The notes below the pieces were generated by a model. The model had not been told where the DNA came from and did no database searches. It was given only the letters and a program-made list of their open reading frames with translations. A DNA stretch of 32,000 nucleotides from Candidatus Syntropharchaeum caldarium (GTDB lineage: Archaea > Halobacteriota > Syntropharchaeia > Syntropharchaeales > Syntropharchaeaceae), in the NCBI GenBank assembly GCA_001766815.1, contig LYOS01000001.1, forward strand, positions 30,001-62,000, read 5' to 3'. Position 1 is the first letter of the stretch; every line of letters starts with the position of its first letter. Position numbers and translations under genes: made by a program. Below are positions 2 to 13,623 of the stretch, piece after piece.

Positions 2-1510
2 GGCGAGAAGGTTCACTGGGCTGATGTTATCGCAGAAGAGCTGATAGCGACAGGGCGCAAGCAGGTTGTTGCAACAGGGATCTCACCTTCTGGTCCAATT
101 CATATCGGAAACTTAAGAGAAGTGATAACAGCAGACGCGATCTACCGGGCGCTTCGTGACAGGGGTGCAGAGGATGCACGACTCATCTATGTGGCAGATA
201 CATTCGATCCGCTGAGACGGGTTTATCCTTTTTTACCTGATTCTTACGCTGAGTATGTTGGATCTCCGATCTCGACAATTCCTGACCCTGAAGGCTGCTG
301 TAAAAACTATGCAGAGCATTTTCTGCAACCATTTCTTGAATCCCTCGATGAACTTGAGATCGAGATTGAGGTTTACCGTGCAGATCTGATGTATGCAAAG
401 GGCGATTATGATGAGGCAATTTTGAAAGCACTCAGAATGCGTGACAGGATTGCTTCAATCATCGATGAAGTCACAGGAAAGGTCACCTCTCACGACTGGA
501 GTCCTTTCAACCCGATATGCAAGAGGTGTGGCAGACTCACAACGACAACGGTTACAGATTTTGATCCGCAGCAGATGCGTGCTGGGTATATATGTCAGTG
601 TGGAGAGGAAGGCGAGGTTCCGATCAGAGGTGGAGGAAAACTCACATGGCGGGTTGACTGGCCTGCAAGATGGGAAATTCTTGGCGTGACAGCAGAACCG
701 TTCGGGAAGGATCATGCATCTGCTGGAAGTTCTTACGATTCTGGAATACGCCTATCAAAGGAGATCTATAATTATGAACCGCCATACCCGATTCCGTTTG
801 AACATGTACTCCTGAAAGGCAAAGGCTCGATGTCCTCATCGAAAGGAGTTGCAATAACGGTTTCTGAGATGCTCTCGTGTATCCCGCCTGAGATACTGAA
901 GTATATTATGATAAGGGTCAAGCCAGAGAAACACATTGAGCTTGATCCTGCTCTCCCGCTTCTTAACTTAATCGATGAGTATGAACGGCTGGATCCTGCA
1001 TCTGATCGGTCGAAAGAGCTTTCAGCAACTGAAAAAAGCCTGAGGATCGATATCCCGTTCAGACACATCATCAATATCGTACAGATAGCGGGATTTGACG
1101 CTGAGAAGGCGCTTGAGGTGATAAAACGGGGTGGATACAAACTTGATGATCTTGAGATCATCGATCGATACAGCGCGTACGCAAGATCCTGGCTTGAGCG
1201 GTTTGCGCCCCAGTCGTTGAGGTTTGAGTTGCAGGAAGATGTGCCACCCGAAGCTTCAGAGATCCCACAGAACGTGCGCGAGGGACTCAACGAACTTGCG
1301 GACTTTCTCACGCAGGCAGATCTTGATGCTGAGATGGTACATCAGGAGATCTATGCGATCGCCACGCGGCTCGGGATAAAGCCAAAGGAGCTCTTTGCAG
1401 GGATTTATCTTGCACTTCTTGGGAGGAGGTCAGGGCCAAGGGCCGGATGGTTTCTGGTCTCGCTCGATCGAGAGTTTGTCATAGAAAGATTCAGGGCGAT
1501 CACCACCTGA
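2..1510 (+). CDS. lysK: Lysyl-tRNA synthetase, class I (archaeal type); 5' end cut by the window edge
   Basis: The frame of ORF 122..1510 stays open back to position 2. It reads GEKVHWADVIAEELIATGRKQVVATGISPSGPIHIGNLREV, which contains the class I HIGN (HIGH-type) signature. The rest of the ORF has class I LysRS-like length and layout. Stop codon TGA at 1508-1510. Confidence 0.9.
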   Translation, partial: GEKVHWADVIAEELIATGRKQVVATGISPSGPIHIGNLREVITADAIYRALRDRGAEDARLIYVADTFDPLRRVYPFLPDSYAEYVGSPISTIPDPEGCCKNYAEHFLQPFLESLDELEIEIEVYRADLMYAKGDYDEAILKALRMRDRIASIIDEVTGKVTSHDWSPFNPICKRCGRLTTTTVTDFDPQQMRAGYICQCGEEGEVPIRGGGKLTWRVDWPARWEILGVTAEPFGKDHASAGSSYDSGIRLSKEIYNYEPPYPIPFEHVLLKGKGSMSSSKGVAITVSEMLSCIPPEILKYIMIRVKPEKHIELDPALPLLNLIDEYERLDPASDRSKELSATEKSLRIDIPFRHIINIVQIAGFDAEKALEVIKRGGYKLDDLEIIDRYSAYARSWLERFAPQSLRFELQEDVPPEASEIPQNVREGLNELADFLTQADLDAEMVHQEIYAIATRLGIKPKELFAGIYLALLGRRSGPRAGWFLVSLDREFVIERFRAITT

Positions 1511-5777: not shown

Positions 5778-5933
5778 TTATGACTCACCATGATTAAACA
5801 CCTCATCCAGAATACTTTCTTTCATTTTCTCAAGTTGATTTATCTGATACTGAATTTTTTCTTTCAAGGTTTTAATTTTTTCGTAAACAGAATCAAGATA
5901 GTTTGCTATTTCCTTTTGCTTTTCAAGTCGCTG
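5778..5933 (-). pseudogene. Remnant of a second hsdS 3' end (C-terminal conserved helix only)
   Basis: My minus-strand translation is QRLEKQKEIANYLDSVYEKIKTLKEKIQYQINQLEKMKESILDEVFNHGES*. It parallels the C-terminus of the main HsdS (PDLEKQKEIANYLDSVYEKIKTLREKIQRQISLLEEMKESILDEVFTIR*). An in-frame TAG lies immediately upstream, and there is no target recognition domain (TRD). Confidence 0.8.
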
Positions 5934-5938
5934 CTATC

Positions 5939-6655
5939 TTATTCTTTGTAATAAACTGCTTTATCCAGTTGTCGTAACAAAAATGATATGAAACTTAACA
6001 GATCAAGACAGTCGTCTTTTGATATAGGCCAATCAAGAGCAGGTTCATGAGCCGTTGGGTTCCTGATTGCTTGCATCAAACCTGCTGATAAAAACTTAAG
6101 TCCTTCTTGAACATTCTTATCAGTCTCTGTCTCGCATCGAGTAACTTTTAATACCCCTTTTATTCCCCATACATCCATCATCAAAGCATAGCCGTCCTTC
6201 TCACTTTCCGCTTTCTCTTTGACTATCTTGTTATAAACCTTTGCTGCCTCAAATACTGCATGAAAATAGTTTCTTTGCTTGTACAGGTTTAGACAGTGCC
6301 GATGGATAAGATGATGAAAGTTTCTGGAATAAAATTCAGTTAAAGCGTCATCTATATGTAAATTCACCCCAGCTTCTTTTAAAATTTTCTTCACATCCGC
6401 TATTTTGTCCGCAGGAGTGATGAGCCGTAAAAATTTTTTCAATAACTCATTTCGTTCATCATTGTCCATTTTCTGTTTAGCTAAGGTAAGTATCCAGTCA
6501 TGGATTAATTTAGCTCGTGACGATGTAATAGATTCATTTGGGAAATCTTCTTTCGAAAACCTAAACACGGATGCAGCAGCACGATTAATATCATTGATAG
6601 TTGTATCGTATTTTAAAAGATCTCCCACCTGAATTGCTATTAATTGATAATTCAT
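5939..6655 (-). CDS. TIGR02391/Hypoth_ymh-like protein with C-terminal R-N-x3-H motif (238 aa)
   Basis: The C-terminal region ...GLKFLSAGLMQAIRNPTAHEPALDWP... matches my memory of the TIGR02391 (Pfam Hypoth_ymh) signature. GGAGG lies 6 nt before the ATG, and the start is 11 nt after the hsdS stop, so it sits in the same operon. Confidence 0.65.
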   Translation of the reverse strand: MNYQLIAIQVGDLLKYDTTINDINRAAASVFRFSKEDFPNESITSSRAKLIHDWILTLAKQKMDNDERNELLKKFLRLITPADKIADVKKILKEAGVNLHIDDALTEFYSRNFHHLIHRHCLNLYKQRNYFHAVFEAAKVYNKIVKEKAESEKDGYALMMDVWGIKGVLKVTRCETETDKNVQEGLKFLSAGLMQAIRNPTAHEPALDWPISKDDCLDLLSFISFLLRQLDKAVYYKE

Positions 6656-6666
6656 ATTCAGCCTCC

Positions 6667-7704
6667 TTACCTAATAGTAAACACCTCATCCAAAATACTT
6701 TCTTTCATCTCCTCAAGCAAGCTTATCTGCCTCTGGATTTTCTCTCTCAGGGTCTTGATTTTTTCATAAACACTGTCAAGGTAGTTTGCTATTTCTTTTT
6801 GCTTTTCAAGGTCTGGATGGTTGTTGTGGAAGGGGAGGGGGATTTTTGAATTGATTAAAAATTCTTTAGGAACTCTTTTATGTCCAACTGTCCCAGTAAA
6901 ATGGAGTTTAGCTAAGTTTCTAAATCTTTTCCTTCTGATGAAATAGAAAATAAATTCCGACAAGATGCTCTCTTTTGGTCTTAAAACATGAAATTCCGTT
7001 GATCCAAATCCTATTCTGTTTTTTAAGTTACAGGCTATTGCACTTTTTCCATTTTCCATACATGGGGTTATCTTCGCAAATAGCACATCTCCCTCTTTAA
7101 AGTAAGTATATCCTTTATAAACAGACTGAATTGATCTTATTTTCTGTCTCACGATCTTACCCTCAGTATCATCAACATAATCCATAGGAATAAAAGAAAC
7201 TTCAATATTTTGTTCCAATAGTTGCTTAACCTCTGACTTCTTTGGATTTATTCTACATACTTCCCTTAACCTCACCTCTCTCCACTCCTCACCCTCCTTC
7301 AGCTTAAATGCCTGCTCTAAAACGCTTTCCCAGAGTTCATCAAGTTTTTCAAGTTCTTTCTTTTTCTTCTCCAGAATTCTGTCAATCCTTGAAAAGTTTG
7401 CCTCAATGTATTCAACGATTTTCTTTTGAGTTTCTAAATCTAACTTGCCGTTGCGGAAGGGGAGGGGGAGTTTTATTGATAAAAGTTTTTTATTTGATAT
7501 GCCTGCTTGACCAATCCACTTTGTGGCTTTCAGATAGAAAAAACCTTTACTCCAAAGATAATTGAGATACCATGACAAAAAATCAGGTATTATGATTTGT
7601 TTCTTTACTCTTATTCTCGTTATGTGGTTGCTATAAGTATGATTTCCATTTAATTCTCTATAAACAGCGGCTCTACCTACAAGTTCGATACTATTTGTAT
7701 TATT
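6667..7704 (-). pseudogene. hsdS: Type I R-M specificity subunit HsdS, C-terminal 346 codons (distal to the IS insertion)
   Basis: Reading upstream of the track ORF (6667..7578), the frame stays open to the IS junction: NNTNSIELVGRAAVYRELNGNH...FLSWYLNYL... It shows the central and C-terminal conserved coiled-coil repeats (LETQKKIVEYIE..., LEKQKEIANYLD...) and a second TRD. Confidence 0.9.
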
Positions 7705-7705
7705 A

Positions 7706-7722
7706 TAGTCTCCTGCAAAACT
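7706..7722. repeat. IS630-family left terminal inverted repeat
   Basis: TAGTCTCCTGCAAAACT; its reverse-complement partner lies at 8786-8802. Confidence 0.85.
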
Positions 7723-7751
7723 TTATCTACTATCCCATCTCATTCCCTCCT

Positions 7752-8787
7752 GTGAGGGGAGAACGAATATCAATCAGGAAGTTTGAAGAGGTTGGGTCAC
7801 TGTTAAAGAGCGAGAAGGATCCAGTGGTGAAGCAAAAACTCTCTTTTCTCCTGTTTGCAGGAGAAGATTGTCTGTATTTTGAAAGAGCTGTTGAGGCGAC
7901 CGGTATCGATATTACAACTGGCTACACATGGATAAGGATGTGGAATGATCTGGGATACGAAGGGCTTCTTTCAAGCCCAAATAAAGGAGGTAGACCTCCC
8001 AAGCTCACTGACGAAGATCTCGAAGATCTACGGAATATTCTGGAATCTAAGGATTACTGGACGACAAAAGAGGTAACAGTGCTCATCAAAGAGGTCTTCA
8101 TGAAGAAACTATCAGAAGATCAGGTTAGACGCATTTTGAGGGATAAGCTGGGGATGAGACTATCAAAGCCATATCAACATGACTATAGAAGACCAGATAA
8201 CGCCGAAGAGATCTTGAAAGATCGAGTGGAAGCAACTTTGAGTGAGCTTGAAACGAAAGGATACAAGAGGGAAGAAATAGCAATCGGGTTTGTAGATGAG
8301 AGTTCTCCTCAAAATACTGCCAATACGGTTAGGGTCTGGAGTTTTGGTAAGCCGCATATAAAAAAACACCACAAGGATGAGATCCAATGCGATGGGGTTC
8401 TATCCGATTAGAGGAGAAGAGGTGATAATTTTTCCTGAGAATTCAAAGATAGAGAGCTTCATTGACTTTTTGAGGGCGATACGGGCGGTTAATGATGATT
8501 ACAAAGCGATTATCGTGGTACTCGATAACTTCAGCACGCACGTATCGAATAGGGTGAAAAAAGAGGCCGAGCAGCTCGGGATATATCTCGTTTACCTCCC
8601 ACCATACTCGCCCGATCTCAATCCGATCGAGTTTGTATGGAAGAGCATCAAAAGAGTCATCTCGATTCTTTTTGTGGATAACGTAGAGGTTCTGAGGAGG
8701 ATAATCGAAAGAACATTCAGTAGGCTTGCAGAGAGCTTATCATTTGCTAAGTCGTGGATAGAAAAATTCATCCCATCGTGGATTTAG
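7752..8787 (+). CDS. IS630-family DDE transposase, split into two frames (orfA to 8411, orfB from about 8368); needs a +1 shift or a 1-nt correction
   Basis: The N-terminal HTH region reads ...GYTWIRMWNDLGYEGLL...GGRPPKL. The DDE-like triad is IGFVDESS, VVLDNFSTH and YSPDLNPIEFVWKSIK. The GTG at 7752 is the first plausible start inside the element. The two frames overlap around an A7 run at 8360-8366. Confidence 0.8.
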
Positions 8788-8802
8788 TTTTGCGGGGGAC
8801 TA
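8786..8802. repeat. IS630-family right terminal inverted repeat
   Basis: AGTTTTGCGGGGGACTA, which is the reverse complement of TAGTCCCCCGCAAAACT. Confidence 0.85.
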
Positions 8803-9076
8803 TAAATAGAACATCTTCATCTTGGATAAAATATTTTTCAACTTCTTGCATATTTTTAGGTATATATGTTAATTCATCAAAATTTATCTTATTCCAATTT
8901 GCTATATTGTATGGTCTTAACTGCGGAATTCCATTATTAGCACCTATCTTTCTTCTTTTTTGCTTAGATAAAGCAAAGCCTGACTTCACCTCTTCCACAA
9001 ATTCCTTAACTTTTAACTCCCTCCACTCAACTTCTTCGGATTCCCACGGTTTTTTATTTTTGACCATAAGAATCAC
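8803..9076 (-). pseudogene. hsdS: HsdS N-terminal 91 codons (proximal to the IS insertion)
   Basis: (M)ILMVKNKKPWESEEVEWRELKVKEFVEEVKSGF...YFIQDEDVLF is a typical start of HsdS TRD1. The frame then runs into the IS inverted repeat. Candidate starts are GTG 9076 and ATG 9067. Confidence 0.85.
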
Positions 9077-9590
9077 CGCGAAATCTAGAAAGTTCCGAAG
9101 GTATAAAATCAGAGAATCCGCTTTTTTTCACAAAAAATAGGATAACATCCAAAAATATTTCTTCATCATTATAAAAAGAAGTATAATAAAGAGGAAAATG
9201 GACAAAATGGTTTCTCACAAAAATGAGATACTCTAATTTTTCTCCAATCTCATTTAAAATATCTTTACTCATCTTCTTCTTGAGGTTACCTAATGTTCTC
9301 TTTGATGGGTCCATCTCTAAAAAATACTCAAATTGTTTGGAAATAAAATATAATTTGATACCCCCTTCTAATGCAATAGATAGTAAACCATACAGTAAAG
9401 GAATTTTTTGAAGTGTGATTGTATCCTCTTTAACTCGTGAATATTCTTCTAAAATATGCTTTATTGTTTCCGCTAAATCCGACAAGTATCTCTCTTTTTG
9501 TTTGTCATTCTCAAATATTTTTAACAACTTACACTCATTCTTTTTGTATTCACGAATTAATTCATTTTTTCTATCTTTAAGATATTTCAT
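9054..9590 (-). CDS. Hypothetical 178-aa protein with an Rx4H (HEPN-type) motif, embedded between hsdM and hsdS
   Basis: Its ATG overlaps the hsdM stop (ATGA, 9587-9590) and its 3' end overlaps the hsdS start. The motif RNHFVH (residues 126-131) is encoded at 9198-9215. Composition is lysine- and glutamate-rich and looks helical. I recognise no named family. Confidence 0.6.
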   Translation of the reverse strand: MKYLKDRKNELIREYKKNECKLLKIFENDKQKERYLSDLAETIKHILEEYSRVKEDTITLQKIPLLYGLLSIALEGGIKLYFISKQFEYFLEMDPSKRTLGNLKKKMSKDILNEIGEKLEYLIFVRNHFVHFPLYYTSFYNDEEIFLDVILFFVKKSGFSDFIPSELSRFRGDSYGQK

Positions 9591-11023
9591 CTTAAAATCT
9601 CCTGCAACTCCTCAAACAACTCCATAACCTCTTTTTCCTCTCTCAAAACATCCTCTAAAATCTCTCCTGCTGGTCTGTATTCTTTTTCCTTCAACTTGTT
9701 CGGATTTCTTGGCGTTAGTTCATAAGTTTCTTCGTCAATCCCATCAATCTTGACAATCCATGAATTTTCGCTTACCTCTCTGTTCTGCCATTTTTCATAG
9801 CAGTCCTGCCAGTCTTCATCCCTCATTGGTCTTGTCTTGGTAAAGTTTTTCATCTCTTCTGGAGGTTGAATCTCATAGTACCATATCTCCTCTGCTGGTC
9901 CTGTTTTGTCGAAAAACAGAAGGTTGGTTTTAACAGGTGTTTTTCCAGATGCCGTAAATACTCCTTTGGGCAAGGAAACAATTGTATGGACGTTGTAGTT
10001 TTCAAGAAGTTCTTTTCTAACCCTGACAAAAGGTCCTGTTGTGTTGGATAAGACGCCTTCAGGAACAACGATTCCAACCCTTCCACCCTGCTTTATCTTT
10101 CTCATCACATACTGCAGAGCCATTAACTCAGTATTAGAACTTTTGACGGGGAAATTAACCTTAAACCTCTCATCAAACTTTCCGCCAAATGGGGGATTTG
10201 TAAGGATAATATCCACTTTTTCTTTTTCCTGAATTTTTCTTATATCGTCGGCAAAAGTATCAACCTTGTAAATGTGAGATGTTGGGAGATCGTGCAAAAG
10301 AAGGTTCATTATTCCTATAAGGTAAGGGATGTCTTTCTTATCCTGTCCATAGAACATATCATGTAAAATCTTCGTTCCCTTTGTTGTAAAAACTCCTATA
10401 CTCTTGAGAATGTGGCTGTAGCTTTCGATCAGGAACCCAGAAGAGCCTAAGAATGGATCTAAAATTTTTTCACCAAGTCTGGGATTAACAATCTTTACCA
10501 TCAACCTTATAATAGGTCTTGGAGTGTAATACTCTCCTGCATATTTGCCCATTTCTCCAATTTCTGGTAAGAGTTCTTCGTAAAGTGCAGAAATGACATA
10601 AATATCCTCTCTTGTTCTGAACTTCAACTCATCAAGGAGTAAAGCCACTTCTCTCAATTTGTAGCCATCTTTTAGAAAATTCTGGATTTCTTTACCGCTG
10701 AAAATAGTGGCAATTAACTCTTTCTCACCATCACCATCCAATCTGGAAAGAAAAGGGAATAGCTTGTTGTTGATGAAATCTATAAGCTCTTCGCTTCTCC
10801 AGTCTTTATGAATCCAGTCTTTCCATCTGTATGAGGGAGGGATGTTCCTCTGATATTCTTCACCCTTCAACTCTGCCTTTAACTCTCTTTCATCCTCCAG
10901 CTCATCATAGAGTTTAAGGAAAAGCATCCATGATAACTGGACTATGTAATTAACTGATGCGATCTCGTTTCTCAGCAAATCGCAGGCCTGCTTGAACTTT
11001 GATTTTAATTGCTGCCTATCCAT
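9587..11023 (-). CDS. hsdM: Type I R-M DNA methyltransferase subunit HsdM (N6-adenine)
   Basis: It has an HsdM_N-like N-terminus (...CDLLRNE...YIVQLSWMLFLK), a SAM-binding motif I (ILDPFLGSSGF) and the catalytic motif IV ILTNPPFG. The start overlaps the hsdR stop (TAATG). Confidence 0.93.
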   Translation of the reverse strand: MDRQQLKSKFKQACDLLRNEIASVNYIVQLSWMLFLKLYDELEDERELKAELKGEEYQRNIPPSYRWKDWIHKDWRSEELIDFINNKLFPFLSRLDGDGEKELIATIFSGKEIQNFLKDGYKLREVALLLDELKFRTREDIYVISALYEELLPEIGEMGKYAGEYYTPRPIIRLMVKIVNPRLGEKILDPFLGSSGFLIESYSHILKSIGVFTTKGTKILHDMFYGQDKKDIPYLIGIMNLLLHDLPTSHIYKVDTFADDIRKIQEKEKVDIILTNPPFGGKFDERFKVNFPVKSSNTELMALQYVMRKIKQGGRVGIVVPEGVLSNTTGPFVRVRKELLENYNVHTIVSLPKGVFTASGKTPVKTNLLFFDKTGPAEEIWYYEIQPPEEMKNFTKTRPMRDEDWQDCYEKWQNREVSENSWIVKIDGIDEETYELTPRNPNKLKEKEYRPAGEILEDVLREEKEVMELFEELQEILR

Positions 11024-13548
11024 TATCTAACACCACCAGCCTCATAGAGACCTTGAGAAATGCCTTCAAGGGTATGTATGAGATTGTCTATTCCACCGAA
11101 GGAATCAATAATTTCCTTCAATTTACCGATTTTCTGGATATCTGGGGATTCCAGAGCTTCTGGGGAGATCTCATCAATGCCACCGATCTTGTATTTTTCT
11201 ATAAGGTTCAGTAAAACCCCTTTGGCGGTCTCATTGAAGGAGTTAATAAATTGCTGTTTTTCATTTAACAATGCCTGAGCCCTATCATCTCTGCTCAGAA
11301 TTGGAGCATCAAAAGCCACATGAGCAATAACATCAAAGGCATCTGCATCAGGTCTATCAAGCAACTGAGCTATTAACTCTGGATTTATACTCTTTTTCTT
11401 TAAATCTTCCAAGAATTTCTTTCTGCTCTCCTTATTTATCCAGATTTTTCTTAAATCATCAAGCGTAAGAATCTTTTTCCTCACATTTTCTCCGGCATAC
11501 TCAATATATCTCGCTTTATTCAGTTTCTTACCTTCTACTTCAACATATAGCTCTTCTTCGATGTAAACACCGATACCTTTAACAACTATTTTACCCTCTT
11601 TAGGTTTTCTCTTCTTTAATTCAATTACAACAGCTATCCTATCCTTAAATGGAATGGGATCTACACTTACCTCCCTGAGTTTATAGTTCTTTGCTTCAAC
11701 TTTTACTTTTACTGGCGAATGTGGGCAACCATCAATAGTGAATTCTCCACTTTCATTAGTTTTGGCCGGTTTTACCATATTGACGCCCAATTTTGCTGTT
11801 ATTCTTGCATTAGCAATAGGTGTTCCATCCTCCTCATCCACAACTTTTCCCTTTATGAAGTAATCAAAAGGCCCCTCTGGGATATCTGGTATGTATTCCT
11901 CGGGTGGTAAATCCCATGGATCCAAAAGACGGGTTGCATTTACAAAGTCTATTATTCTGAAATAGAATTTATTTGCATCCTCACTTATCCTGCTCCCTCT
12001 ACCCATAATCTGCTTGAACAGTACCTTTGATGCAATGGGCTTCATAAAAACAATATTTTTCACAGGAGGAATATCAACTCCTGTGCTTAATAGATCCACA
12101 GTCACGGCAATAACAGGTATCTGATATTCAGAATCTGCCATCCTTTCAGCAAGCTCTATTGCGTTTGGTTCTTCATCAACTATTCTAACAACAAAATCAT
12201 CGGCATTTACACCGGTTGAAGCAATTTCATAAGCTAATTCATTTTGCAGAACCTTTACAACGTCAAGGGCATGTTCTTTTGTCACACAGAAAACGATTGT
12301 TTTCTCTGTTGGACCGTAAATCTTCAGTATTTCAGCAAGTTTCTTGGTCATAGCTTCTGTTCTATCAGGTAGAATTATGCTTCTCTCAAACTCTCCAACC
12401 GAGTAGAATTCCTTAACCTCTGTTTCTTCAGGAGTATCAATAACAGCACCTTCGCTTGCTACATCAGTAAGAGATATTCCGCCTTTCTTATCAATATTCA
12501 CGTAAATTTTATGAATCTTATAAGGAGAGAGAAATCCGTCATCTATACCCTGTCCTAAGCTGTAAACATAAACAGGCGTACCAAAATAAGCGTAGGTATC
12601 TCTGTTATCATCATCACTTTTTGGTGTGGCAGTCATACCAAAATGAACCGCATCTTTAAAGTGATCAAGAATCTCCTTCCATCGCCCATATCCTGATCTA
12701 TGGCACTCATCAATAATTACCATATCAAAAAAGTCAGGAGGATATTCCTGATAGAGCCTCTTTCCATTTTTCTCAGAATAGAGCGTCTGATATGTAGCAA
12801 AATAAATATCCCTGATTTTAGGAGCTTTCCCTTCTTTTATTACCTCCCTTGCACCACCAAATGGCTCAAAGAACTTATTACAGGCTTGATCTCTTAACAT
12901 CACTCTATCTGCAATATAAAGTACTCTTCTGATTTTCTTAGTGTTATAGAGCTTCCATGCTACCTGAAAAGCAACATAGGTCTTACCCGTTCCGGTCGCC
13001 ATAGTAAGTAGAATACGCTTTTTACCGTTCAGAAAAGCTTCTATAATGTTCTTTACTGCCGCAATCTGGTAATATCTTGGGGTCTTGTTCTGAACAACCT
13101 TATACGGGTATAAAAGTGGATTTTCATCTTTATCAAATGGAAGTGGTTTGTTAAATTTCCAGAGTGAATATCGCTTCCATAGTTCCTGAGGAGATGGAAA
13201 CTTATCAATTGTGGTTTGCCTTTTGGTTATGAAATCATATTCCTCAATTTTATGACCATTTGTTGAGTATGTGAATGGGACATTTAGCATCCCCGTATAT
13301 CTTTTTGCCTGCTGGATTCCTGCCGCATGATGTTTTGCCTCTTCTTTTGCCTCAACAACAGCTATCGGGAAGTATCTCTCTAAAAATAGAATATAATCAG
13401 GTTTTACTCCTTCTTTTCTATTTCCATATTCATCTATAATCCGACCTTCTGTTATTTTTAACTCACGTTGGATTAAATCTTCTGACCATCCAGATTCATG
13501 TAATTTTGGATCTATCAGCTTAGCTCTTGTTTCTGCCTCGTTTAGCAT
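11023..13548 (-). CDS. hsdR: Type I restriction enzyme R subunit HsdR (COG4096/EcoEI-like), 841 aa
   Basis: The N-terminal PD-(D/E)xK nuclease region reads AETRAKLIDPKL...PDYILF...VVEAKEE. Helicase motifs are TMATGTGKT (I), IIDECHR (II), MTATP (III) and QIMGRGSR (VI). The C-terminus is EcoEI_R_C-like (RPDADAFDVIAHVAF...). Confidence 0.93.
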   Translation of the reverse strand: MLNEAETRAKLIDPKLHESGWSEDLIQRELKITEGRIIDEYGNRKEGVKPDYILFLERYFPIAVVEAKEEAKHHAAGIQQAKRYTGMLNVPFTYSTNGHKIEEYDFITKRQTTIDKFPSPQELWKRYSLWKFNKPLPFDKDENPLLYPYKVVQNKTPRYYQIAAVKNIIEAFLNGKKRILLTMATGTGKTYVAFQVAWKLYNTKKIRRVLYIADRVMLRDQACNKFFEPFGGAREVIKEGKAPKIRDIYFATYQTLYSEKNGKRLYQEYPPDFFDMVIIDECHRSGYGRWKEILDHFKDAVHFGMTATPKSDDDNRDTYAYFGTPVYVYSLGQGIDDGFLSPYKIHKIYVNIDKKGGISLTDVASEGAVIDTPEETEVKEFYSVGEFERSIILPDRTEAMTKKLAEILKIYGPTEKTIVFCVTKEHALDVVKVLQNELAYEIASTGVNADDFVVRIVDEEPNAIELAERMADSEYQIPVIAVTVDLLSTGVDIPPVKNIVFMKPIASKVLFKQIMGRGSRISEDANKFYFRIIDFVNATRLLDPWDLPPEEYIPDIPEGPFDYFIKGKVVDEEDGTPIANARITAKLGVNMVKPAKTNESGEFTIDGCPHSPVKVKVEAKNYKLREVSVDPIPFKDRIAVVIELKKRKPKEGKIVVKGIGVYIEEELYVEVEGKKLNKARYIEYAGENVRKKILTLDDLRKIWINKESRKKFLEDLKKKSINPELIAQLLDRPDADAFDVIAHVAFDAPILSRDDRAQALLNEKQQFINSFNETAKGVLLNLIEKYKIGGIDEISPEALESPDIQKIGKLKEIIDSFGGIDNLIHTLEGISQGLYEAGGVR

Positions 13549-13623
13549 GATTTTTCACCCATTTATATTGATCATTCTTCAATCTTATATCTTTAACGTC
13601 TTTCTTCTACATTATAGGATAAC

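Follow-up and report, generated by a model that had tools for sequence, protein, structure and literature searches.

The stretch of DNA considered here, hereafter the window, comprises 32,000 nucleotides of the genome of Candidatus Syntropharchaeum caldarium (contig LYOS01000001.1, positions 30,001 to 62,000). Its minus strand carries a compact type I restriction-modification (R-M) operon with the gene order hsdR-hsdM-X-hsdS-Ymh, in which a small gene, denoted X, overlaps both hsdM and hsdS (Table 1). An identical protein has a database entry, 'hypothetical protein SCAL_000039' of Candidatus Syntrophoarchaeum caldarius. An earlier note on this DNA had singled out the gene because of its coupling to both neighbours and a HEPN-type motif in its product, and had raised the possibility that it encodes an undescribed RNase or effector guarded by the R-M complex. 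On balance we favour reading X as a small stand-alone protein of the HEPN superfamily, belonging to a rare archaeal family that is found preferentially between hsdM and hsdS in type I R-M operons.

Table 1. Genes and sequence features of the X operon. Positions are numbered from the first nucleotide of the window.
Feature	Position	Strand	Identification
hsdR, type I restriction subunit, 841 aa	11023..13548	-	Pfam ResIII 2.7e-43, EcoEI_R_C 2.6e-24, HSDR_N_2; first gene of the operon
hsdM, type I methyltransferase subunit, 478 aa	9587..11023	-	Pfam N6_Mtase 4.5e-61, HsdM_N 5.2e-15
Gene X (target open reading frame), 178 aa, predicted stand-alone HEPN-superfamily protein	9054..9590	-	
E75-G-G-I-K79 codons, E-x3-K motif, helix 60-85	9354..9368	-	
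R98-T99 codons, conserved residues of the insert that separates core helices 2 and 3	9294..9299	-	
R126-N-H-F-V-H131 codons, Rx4H motif, predicted RNase active site	9198..9215	-	
hsdS 5' fragment, start of target-recognition domain 1	8805..9067	-	matches residues 1-83 of the intact HsdS of locus L001; boundary set by the position of the insertion sequence
IS630-like insertion sequence within hsdS	7706..8802	+	Pfam HTH_32, DDE_3; terminal inverted repeats, TA on both sides
hsdS 3' fragment	6667..7703	-	Pfam Methylase_S 8e-21; residues 101-419 of L001 HsdS, 45% identity, E 2e-64
Ymh/TIGR02391 HEPN gene, 238 aa	5939..6655	-	Hypoth_Ymh 2.1e-31, TIGR02391 3.3e-26; last gene of the operon

The hsdM gene ends with ...AGA TGA and gene X starts with ATG A.., such that the two genes share a 4-nt ATGA overlap, and a Shine-Dalgarno-like box, AGGAG, is located 8 nt before the X start codon. 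At the other end, the X stop codon occupies positions 9054-9056 and hsdS most likely begins at the ATG at position 9067, as judged from the deduced N-terminal sequence MVKNKKPWE (cf. MSKTKKPWE of an intact homolog). This start yields a 14-nt overlap between X and hsdS, while a GTG start at position 9076 would extend it to 23 nt, and the identical 14-nt overlap is present in the homologous locus L001. Both overlaps had been described in the earlier note and were confirmed, as was the placement of the RNHFVH codons. Gene X is an integral cistron of the hsdR-hsdM-X-hsdS operon by virtue of these overlapping start and stop codons. The GC content of the R-M/HEPN island (5900..13600) is 0.34-0.40, versus 0.43-0.49 in the flanking housekeeping genes, with the window minimum of 0.337 falling in the region of X, and the low value for the island suggests that it was acquired horizontally.

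What had been overlooked earlier is that hsdS is interrupted by an IS630-like insertion sequence (IS) of 1,097 bp. The element is bordered by a duplicated TA, at 7704-7705 and 8803-8804, and carries inverted repeats with the sequence TAGTC(T/C)CC(T/C)GCAAAA. Its transposase is split over two frames, with HTH_32 encoded in 7695..8411 and DDE_3 in 8377..8787, in the +1 frame. Excision of the element in silico, together with one TA, restored an hsdS open reading frame (ORF) of 433 amino acids. The type I R-M system is probably non-functional in this genome. Since hsdS is disrupted and X is intact, the organism evidently copes without a functional HsdM2S complex; alternatively, the insertion may be recent or present only in a subpopulation.

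Homologs of X are few. Eight further proteins were found that are 50-67% identical to X, and a HMMER profile search against 1.84 billion cluster representatives yielded 12 proteins at E-values up to 0.001, indicating that the family is very small. When the profile search was made against a set of 5.8 billion proteins, the family grew to 49 members in total. None of these 49 carries a Pfam domain and all bear the name 'hypothetical' in their sources. The earlier statement that X belongs to no named family also held, in that the window protein reached the threshold of no model in Pfam, NCBIfam, PADLOC or PHROGs; its direct matches in the first three of these were dismissed as coiled-coil noise. 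The homologs are stand-alone proteins of 178-214 amino acids and, where the organism of a family member or locus is named, it is an archaeon: Syntrophoarchaeum, ANME-1/Methanophagales, Methanosarcinales, Methanoperedens, Woesearchaeota and Ca. Forterrea. In terms of sequence searches, the X family is rare, absent from the databases checked and so far found only in archaea. Literature searches on HEPN genes in hsd loci and on Syntrophoarchaeum R-M systems turned up no description of it.

Comparison of the window with three homologous loci gave ratios of nonsynonymous to synonymous substitution (dN/dS) of 0.14-0.26 for X, the value being 0.26 in the sole pair for which synonymous sites are unsaturated, and this indicates that X is under purifying selection. 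For hsdM and hsdR of the same loci the ratios were 0.03-0.04. The corresponding amino acid identities are 56-67% for X, 88-89% for HsdM and 91% for HsdR, the rate of evolution of X being 4-6 times that of the adjacent hsdM and hsdR genes.

The 49-member alignment, in which identity to the window protein falls as low as 22%, was assembled from members retrieved without use of the motif. Eight columns of it are invariant, namely Y50, E75, G76, R126, N127, H131, F132 and Y135, and a further four residues (K79, R98, T99 and P133) are conserved in at least 90% of the members, with K79 replaced by R in two of them. Invariance of R126 and H131, and recurrence of the gene between hsdM and hsdS (see below), had been proposed earlier as checks on the idea, and both were borne out. 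When loci fished with the motif itself are included, R126-N127-x3-H131 is kept in all 64; the X homologs of loci L021 and L022 carry K in place of Y135.

Shuffling of the single X protein produced an Rx4H motif in 13% of cases and R[NDH]x3H in 1.3%, and it is because R126, N127 and H131 are invariant in 49/49 members, and not on account of any one sequence, that the motif exceeds chance. The frequency of the bare Rx4H motif among shuffles, and the location of X at the GC minimum of the window, are what one might cite for an ORF in the hsdM-hsdS spacer that is spurious or in decay, with a motif present by chance. Given 49 homologs of conserved length in which the motifs never vary, the dN/dS ratios, the confident structure prediction described below and the conserved overlaps with neighbouring genes, together with the Shine-Dalgarno-like box, we regard the probability of this as negligible and consider it ruled out. 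X is a real gene.

The HEPN superfamily has been defined by an Rx4-6H motif with N, D or H directly following the R, positioned at the end of helix-3 or where the loop to helix-4 begins, by another acidic residue, conserved in helix-2 and usually part of an Ex3[KR] sequence, and by frequent inserts between helices 2 and 3 (PMC3710099). In X, the polar residue N127 follows R126 in the R126-N127-x3-H131 motif, and E75 and K79 form an E-x3-K sequence within the predicted helix 60-85. Judged by its sequence, then, X carries both HEPN signatures, E-x3-K and R-N-x3-H, with E75, R126, N127 and H131 invariant and K79 nearly so. The identification of RNxxxH as a HEPN-type motif, made originally from one sequence, is thereby strengthened by the invariance of the motif, the N after the R, its place at the end of a predicted core helix and the accompanying E-x3-K upstream.

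A first AlphaFold2 model of X, based on an alignment of nine sequences, gave a pLDDT of 52 and was discarded as unusable. With the 49-sequence alignment, an all-helical model was obtained with a pLDDT of 86.3 and a pTM of 0.83, in keeping with the earlier description of a small, K/E-rich and helical-looking protein (K and E constitute 23% of the residues). The predicted helices extend over residues 2-25, 29-55, 60-85, 109-130 and 133-156. The first of these is an extra N-terminal helix lying outside the HEPN core, and an insert with short helices, at 86-108, contains the conserved R98-T99 pair. R126 and N127 are among the final residues of helix 109-130, with H131 in the loop that comes next. 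At the level of predicted secondary structure and of Foldseek comparisons, the model therefore exhibits an all-alpha, up-down core of four helices in which helices 2 and 3 are separated by an insert and the motif falls where helix-3 ends.

Foldseek comparison of the model with the PDB yielded no match at E-values of 0.001 or lower. The 14 best matches were all to HEPN toxins of modules that pair a HEPN protein with a minimal nucleotidyltransferase (MNT) antitoxin (MNT-HEPN; 8xdj, 8xeh, 8yuf, 6m6u, 7bxo, 6m6w, 5yep), with probabilities of up to 0.97, target-normalised TM-scores (TMt) of 0.39-0.55 and E-values of 0.14 or worse, the best being chain C of 8xdj (8xdj_C; probability 0.97, TMt 0.55). 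Other HEPN-domain structures occurred as matches 18, 23 and 43, including 4nqf and 2hsb, the latter with a TMt of 0.62 and a root-mean-square deviation of 4.4 Å. Nothing was found among the viral structures of BFVD. As modelled, the fold of X most resembles those of HEPN toxins.

At the sequence level, when the 49 members were compared with 24,736 Pfam models, the family occurring most commonly below threshold was DUF3644, in 8 of the 49 and with a best E-value of 0.0012, while HEPN_Apea ranked third with 4 of 49. The window protein itself gave no match to DUF3644 (PF12358), for which the gathering threshold is 27.6 bits. The best member score read was that of P0007, at 17.2 bits and an E-value of 0.0041; here residues 86-140 align with positions 42-105 of the 183-position profile, from the ExxxK helix through the RNxxxH motif. 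P0007 was the only member in which the DUF3644 match was placed on the sequence, and two Pfam scans of 10 members each missed DUF3644. A PADLOC scan produced stray single matches to the CARF_HEPN_mCpol, Cas13c and Cas13a models.

A more direct comparison was made with hhalign, using a DUF3644 profile built from the E. coli 042 DUF3644 protein and its aligned homologs. The X family aligned with it over 66 columns with a score of 25.6, a P-value of 0.0035-0.012 and an hhalign probability (Prob) of 3.5-9.4%. The alignment pairs E75 with the E of WEQLLK, R98-T99 with RET, and RNHFVH with RDQAVH. Column-shuffled X profiles scored 12.7 ± 2.3, with a maximum of 21.0, and none of 200 reached 25.6. The reversed X profile scored 14.3 and the negative controls, alignments of HsdM, HsdS and HsdR, scored 13.3-18.5.

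Several results weigh against assigning X to the HEPN superfamily. The sub-threshold Pfam matches attain 15-17 bits where gathering scores are 24-28, and unrelated noise families reach similar E-values when the 49 members are scanned against NCBIfam, with PHROGs likewise giving noise, so that sub-threshold E-values alone prove nothing. Sequence searches of the PDB with 9- and 49-sequence profiles retrieved only Ku70 and designed coiled coils, at E-values above 0.07. Moreover, the hhalign Prob remains below 10%, and no Foldseek E-value for a HEPN structure is better than 0.14. Taken singly and by its usual criterion, no measure of similarity between X and an established HEPN family attains significance. 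On the other side, several independent weak lines converge and the qualitative features of the superfamily are all present in X, and for these reasons we consider X to be very probably homologous to the HEPN superfamily. Of the structural and profile checks foreseen in the earlier note, the best PDB matches, which are HEPN toxins, and the in-register alignment with DUF3644 speak for its idea, but the accompanying E-values and hhalign Prob fall short.

Among known families, DUF3644/EC042_2821 (PF12358; HEC-08) is closest to X by sequence, sharing the order and spacing of the E-x3-K helix, an R-[ET]-T sequence and R-[ND]-x3-H. This HEPN family occurs in R-M operons (PMC3710099), and HEC-08 is an experimentally supported defence protein that no longer protects against phage once the His of its motif is mutated (bioRxiv 10.1101/2024.01.29.577857). 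The proteins of DUF3644 come from bacteria, exceed X in size and carry fused winged helix-turn-helix, restriction endonuclease or Zn-ribbon domains, whereas the X homologs are short, stand-alone and archaeal, with the extra N-terminal helix. ApeA (HEPN_Apea, PF18739), Abi2/AbiD/AbiF and Ymh are further examples of stand-alone HEPN genes nested in R-M operons (PMC3710099), and X shares this theme with them, Ymh being also the gene that closes the window operon. The ApeA match attains 15.5 bits against a gathering score of 24.4 and the Ymh and Abi models gave no match to X; furthermore, X differs from these families in being so far restricted to archaea and fixed at the hsdM-hsdS junction. Membership of X in DUF3644 or ApeA was rejected, since its scores lie below both thresholds.

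The Ymh gene of the window starts 11 nt past the hsdS stop codon, with AAGGAGG ahead of its ATG. Its product carries the motif RNPTAHE and is matched in PADLOC by PD-Lambda-3_B (1.3e-23) and Aga_HEPN. With X and Ymh in the same operon, two different predicted HEPN RNases are therefore encoded there.

X was found in type I R-M loci at at least 10 distinct loci. The order hsdR-hsdM-X-hsdS of the window is shared by P0002 and P0007, and locus L023 carries hsdM-X-hsdS. In L028 the order is hsdM-X-hsdS-hsdR, with hsdS and hsdR in several ORF fragments. Additional genes are present in L011 (P0023; hsdM-X-149aa-hsdS-...-hsdR), L041 (P0037; hsdM-326aa-X-hsdS-HEPN(PF05168)-hsdR) and L040 (P0034; hsdM-SLFN/ATPase-MNT-X-hsdS-...-hsdR), while L007 (P0021) shows hsdM-324aa-X and L027 shows X-hsdS; for P0008, a divergently oriented hsdM lies about 700 nt away. 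The 4-nt overlap between X and hsdM is preserved in L004, L011 and L023, and this includes a case, L011, in which HsdM is only 28% identical to that of the window and represents a different type I lineage.

A special link to R-M is weakened by about half of the informative homolog loci, which lack R-M genes in the available DNA (L009/L015/L026, L017, L019, L020/L036, L021, L022, L030, L037 and L042); several further homolog contigs were too short to judge. It is weakened also by the window operon, where hsdS is inactivated by the IS and X is intact, and by L028, where the R-M genes look fragmented beside an intact X. The R-M junction is thus the commonest home of the X family and not an obligatory one.

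Other small genes accompany X in some of these loci. A gene encoding 324-326 amino acids is located between hsdM and X in two distant loci (L007, 6034..7008; L041, 2508..3488); a direct Pfam scan of the L007 protein gave no match and no precomputed Pfam match exists for the L041 copy. Between X and hsdS, a 149-amino-acid gene occurs in L011 (7696..8145) and L012, again without a match in a Pfam scan. Both kinds of gene could encode partners of X. In L038, a 231-amino-acid ORF (286..981) matches HsdM (8e-86) and carries in its C-terminal part, in frame, the RNNFIHFPLYY region of X; it may reflect a deletion that fused hsdM to the 3' part of X.

The conservation of tight overlaps with hsdM and hsdS across very different type I systems would also be expected if X were a helical subunit of the R-M enzyme, accessory or regulatory and without catalytic activity, which might for example modulate assembly, specificity or activity by binding HsdM or HsdS, with its conserved residues serving for binding and not for RNA cleavage. 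The weak similarity statistics to HEPN families and the extra N-terminal helix, 2-25, outside the HEPN core could be read in the same way. However, the residues that never vary coincide precisely with those expected of a HEPN catalytic site (R, N, H and E-x3-K) and fall in the helices where they belong, R-M genes are missing from the surroundings of about half of the homologs, and the rapid evolution of X relative to HsdM and HsdR is unlike that of an obligatory enzyme subunit. We consider such a subunit quite improbable.

If X is a HEPN protein, as we favour, a mode of action can be outlined by analogy. X would dimerise like other HEPN RNases and, as established for HEPN domains (PMC3710099), would act as a metal-independent endoribonuclease, with H131 as the general base and R126, N127 and E75 completing the predicted active site. 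By this analogy X is probably an active RNase. Its genomic context suggests a toxic effector linked to R-M, which may provide a second line of defence by abortive infection or an addiction function, and translational coupling could keep the dose of X tied to those of HsdM and HsdS. The chances of a defence or toxin role tied to R-M are, in our estimate, about even.

How such a toxin might be restrained can be considered first with respect to HepT, the toxin of MNT-HEPN (MntA-HepT) modules (8xdj, 8xeh, 6m6u, 7bxo, 5yep), which provides the best structural matches to the X model, with probabilities of up to 0.97 and TMt of 0.42-0.55. HepT and X are both small stand-alone proteins, on the HEPN reading of X, in which an RNxxxH-type motif is followed by a conserved Tyr. 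They show no similarity at the level of PDB sequence searches, and X possesses an extra helix and a longer insert. The Tyr that is AMPylated in HepT lies 2 residues after its His, while Tyr135 of X is at position H+4. MntA-HepT modules contain an adjacent, usually overlapping MNT gene. The window X lacks one, and two distant relatives have one: in L040 (4077..5035) an MNT (NTP_transf_2) gene and the start of the X homolog share 4 nt, the arrangement seen in MNT-HEPN toxin-antitoxin modules, and in L021 (3766..4764) such a gene lies directly downstream of the X homolog. The overlapping MNT gene upstream of X in L040 suggests neutralisation of the MNT-HEPN type there, and this neighbour, together with the Tyr135 near the motif, hints at HepT-like control in some members of the family.

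These same observations can be taken further, to propose that X is an addiction-module toxin and not an antiviral effector. It would lend stability to the R-M or defence island, with MNT as its neutralising partner in some loci and, in the window, possibly HsdM or another factor. HepT toxins as the best structural matches, the canonical MNT-HEPN gene layout in L040, the downstream MNT gene in L021, a Tyr that is otherwise invariant four residues past H131 and an island that is low in GC and bears an IS would all accord with this. On the other hand, neither the window operon nor the closest homolog loci contain an MNT gene or another small partner gene. MNT genes are, moreover, very common in these archaeal loci, with three in L040, such that their adjacency to X may be coincidental, and in L021 and L022 the Tyr is replaced by K. 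We judge an addiction toxin of this kind to be unlikely. Given that there is no MNT partner at the window locus, restraint of a HEPN toxin encoded there would come from binding to HsdM/HsdS or from intrinsic latency.

The first of these options recalls PrrC and RloC, which, like X on the HEPN reading, are HEPN RNase domains encoded inside type I hsd operons. The prrC gene is located between hsdS and hsdR, and not between hsdM and hsdS. An N-terminal ABC-ATPase domain regulates the nuclease of PrrC and RloC, whereas X has no ATPase domain according to Pfam, NCBIfam and PADLOC and consists, within its 178 amino acids, of predicted helices only; assignment of X to the ATPase-HEPN type of PrrC was rejected on this basis. 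PrrC is the paradigm of a latent RNase serving as a second line of defence (PMC3710099), and it was on this model that the earlier note had envisaged X as being guarded by the R-M complex. A strict guard of this type is weakened because hsdS is broken by the IS, half of the homologs lie outside R-M loci and X has no ATPase or sensor domain, and is further weakened by the fragmented R-M genes beside an intact X in L028. Direct restraint of X by the R-M complex accordingly has, in our view, only a small likelihood.

A more elaborate version, somewhat less likely again, is that X constitutes a minimal, sensor-less counterpart of PrrC. X would then be a bare HEPN RNase that is assembled co-translationally on HsdM/HsdS by way of the gene overlaps, held inactive perhaps by blocked dimerisation, and freed when phage anti-restriction factors, or the loss of the methylase, cause the complex to fall apart, with control by MNT through nucleotidylation of Tyr135 in relatives. 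If true, this would represent an archaeal 'guarded R-M' mechanism operating without an ATPase.

Two features of the R-M loci lie outside the question of X itself. The slot after hsdS, occupied by Ymh in the window, is filled by other defence genes in homologous loci. In L004/L005 (9770..12871) it holds a gene for a Piwi-domain (short pAgo-like) protein between two unknown genes, and in L001 (9785..11930) an OLD-family ATPase-TOPRIM protein and a 163-amino-acid gene, with a ParE toxin nearby. What follows hsdS seems to be a slot for defence genes that vary between loci. In addition, HsdR of the window carries at residues 565-652 a CarboxypepD_reg (Ig-like beta-sandwich) insert between the helicase and the EcoEI_R_C domain, and this insert is kept in the L001 and L004 homologs; HsdR proteins are not otherwise known to carry an insert of this type.

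X is best filed as a new, database-unannotated family of the HEPN superfamily. The earlier suggestion of something undescribed holds for the family, which is new and unannotated, and not for the principle, given that HEPN genes in R-M operons have been described already (PMC3710099). The embedding of HEPN RNases in R-M systems being established, the gain is incremental. What is added is a family found so far only in archaea, which enlarges both the HEPN superfamily and the catalogue of genes embedded in type I R-M operons, and the new details concern the family itself, the hsdM-hsdS junction as its fixed place, the speed at which it evolves and the archaea that host it. Since no model for the family exists in Pfam, NCBIfam or PADLOC, current defence-annotation pipelines would leave X as 'hypothetical'.

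The fixed junction, the overlaps maintained across methylases that are 28% identical, and the occasional pairing with MNT render the family a compact test case for how a bare HEPN toxin without a fused sensor may be controlled. Its hosts include alkane- and methane-oxidising archaea (Syntrophoarchaeum, ANME-1 and Methanoperedens) together with DPANN lineages, in which antiviral systems have been little studied.

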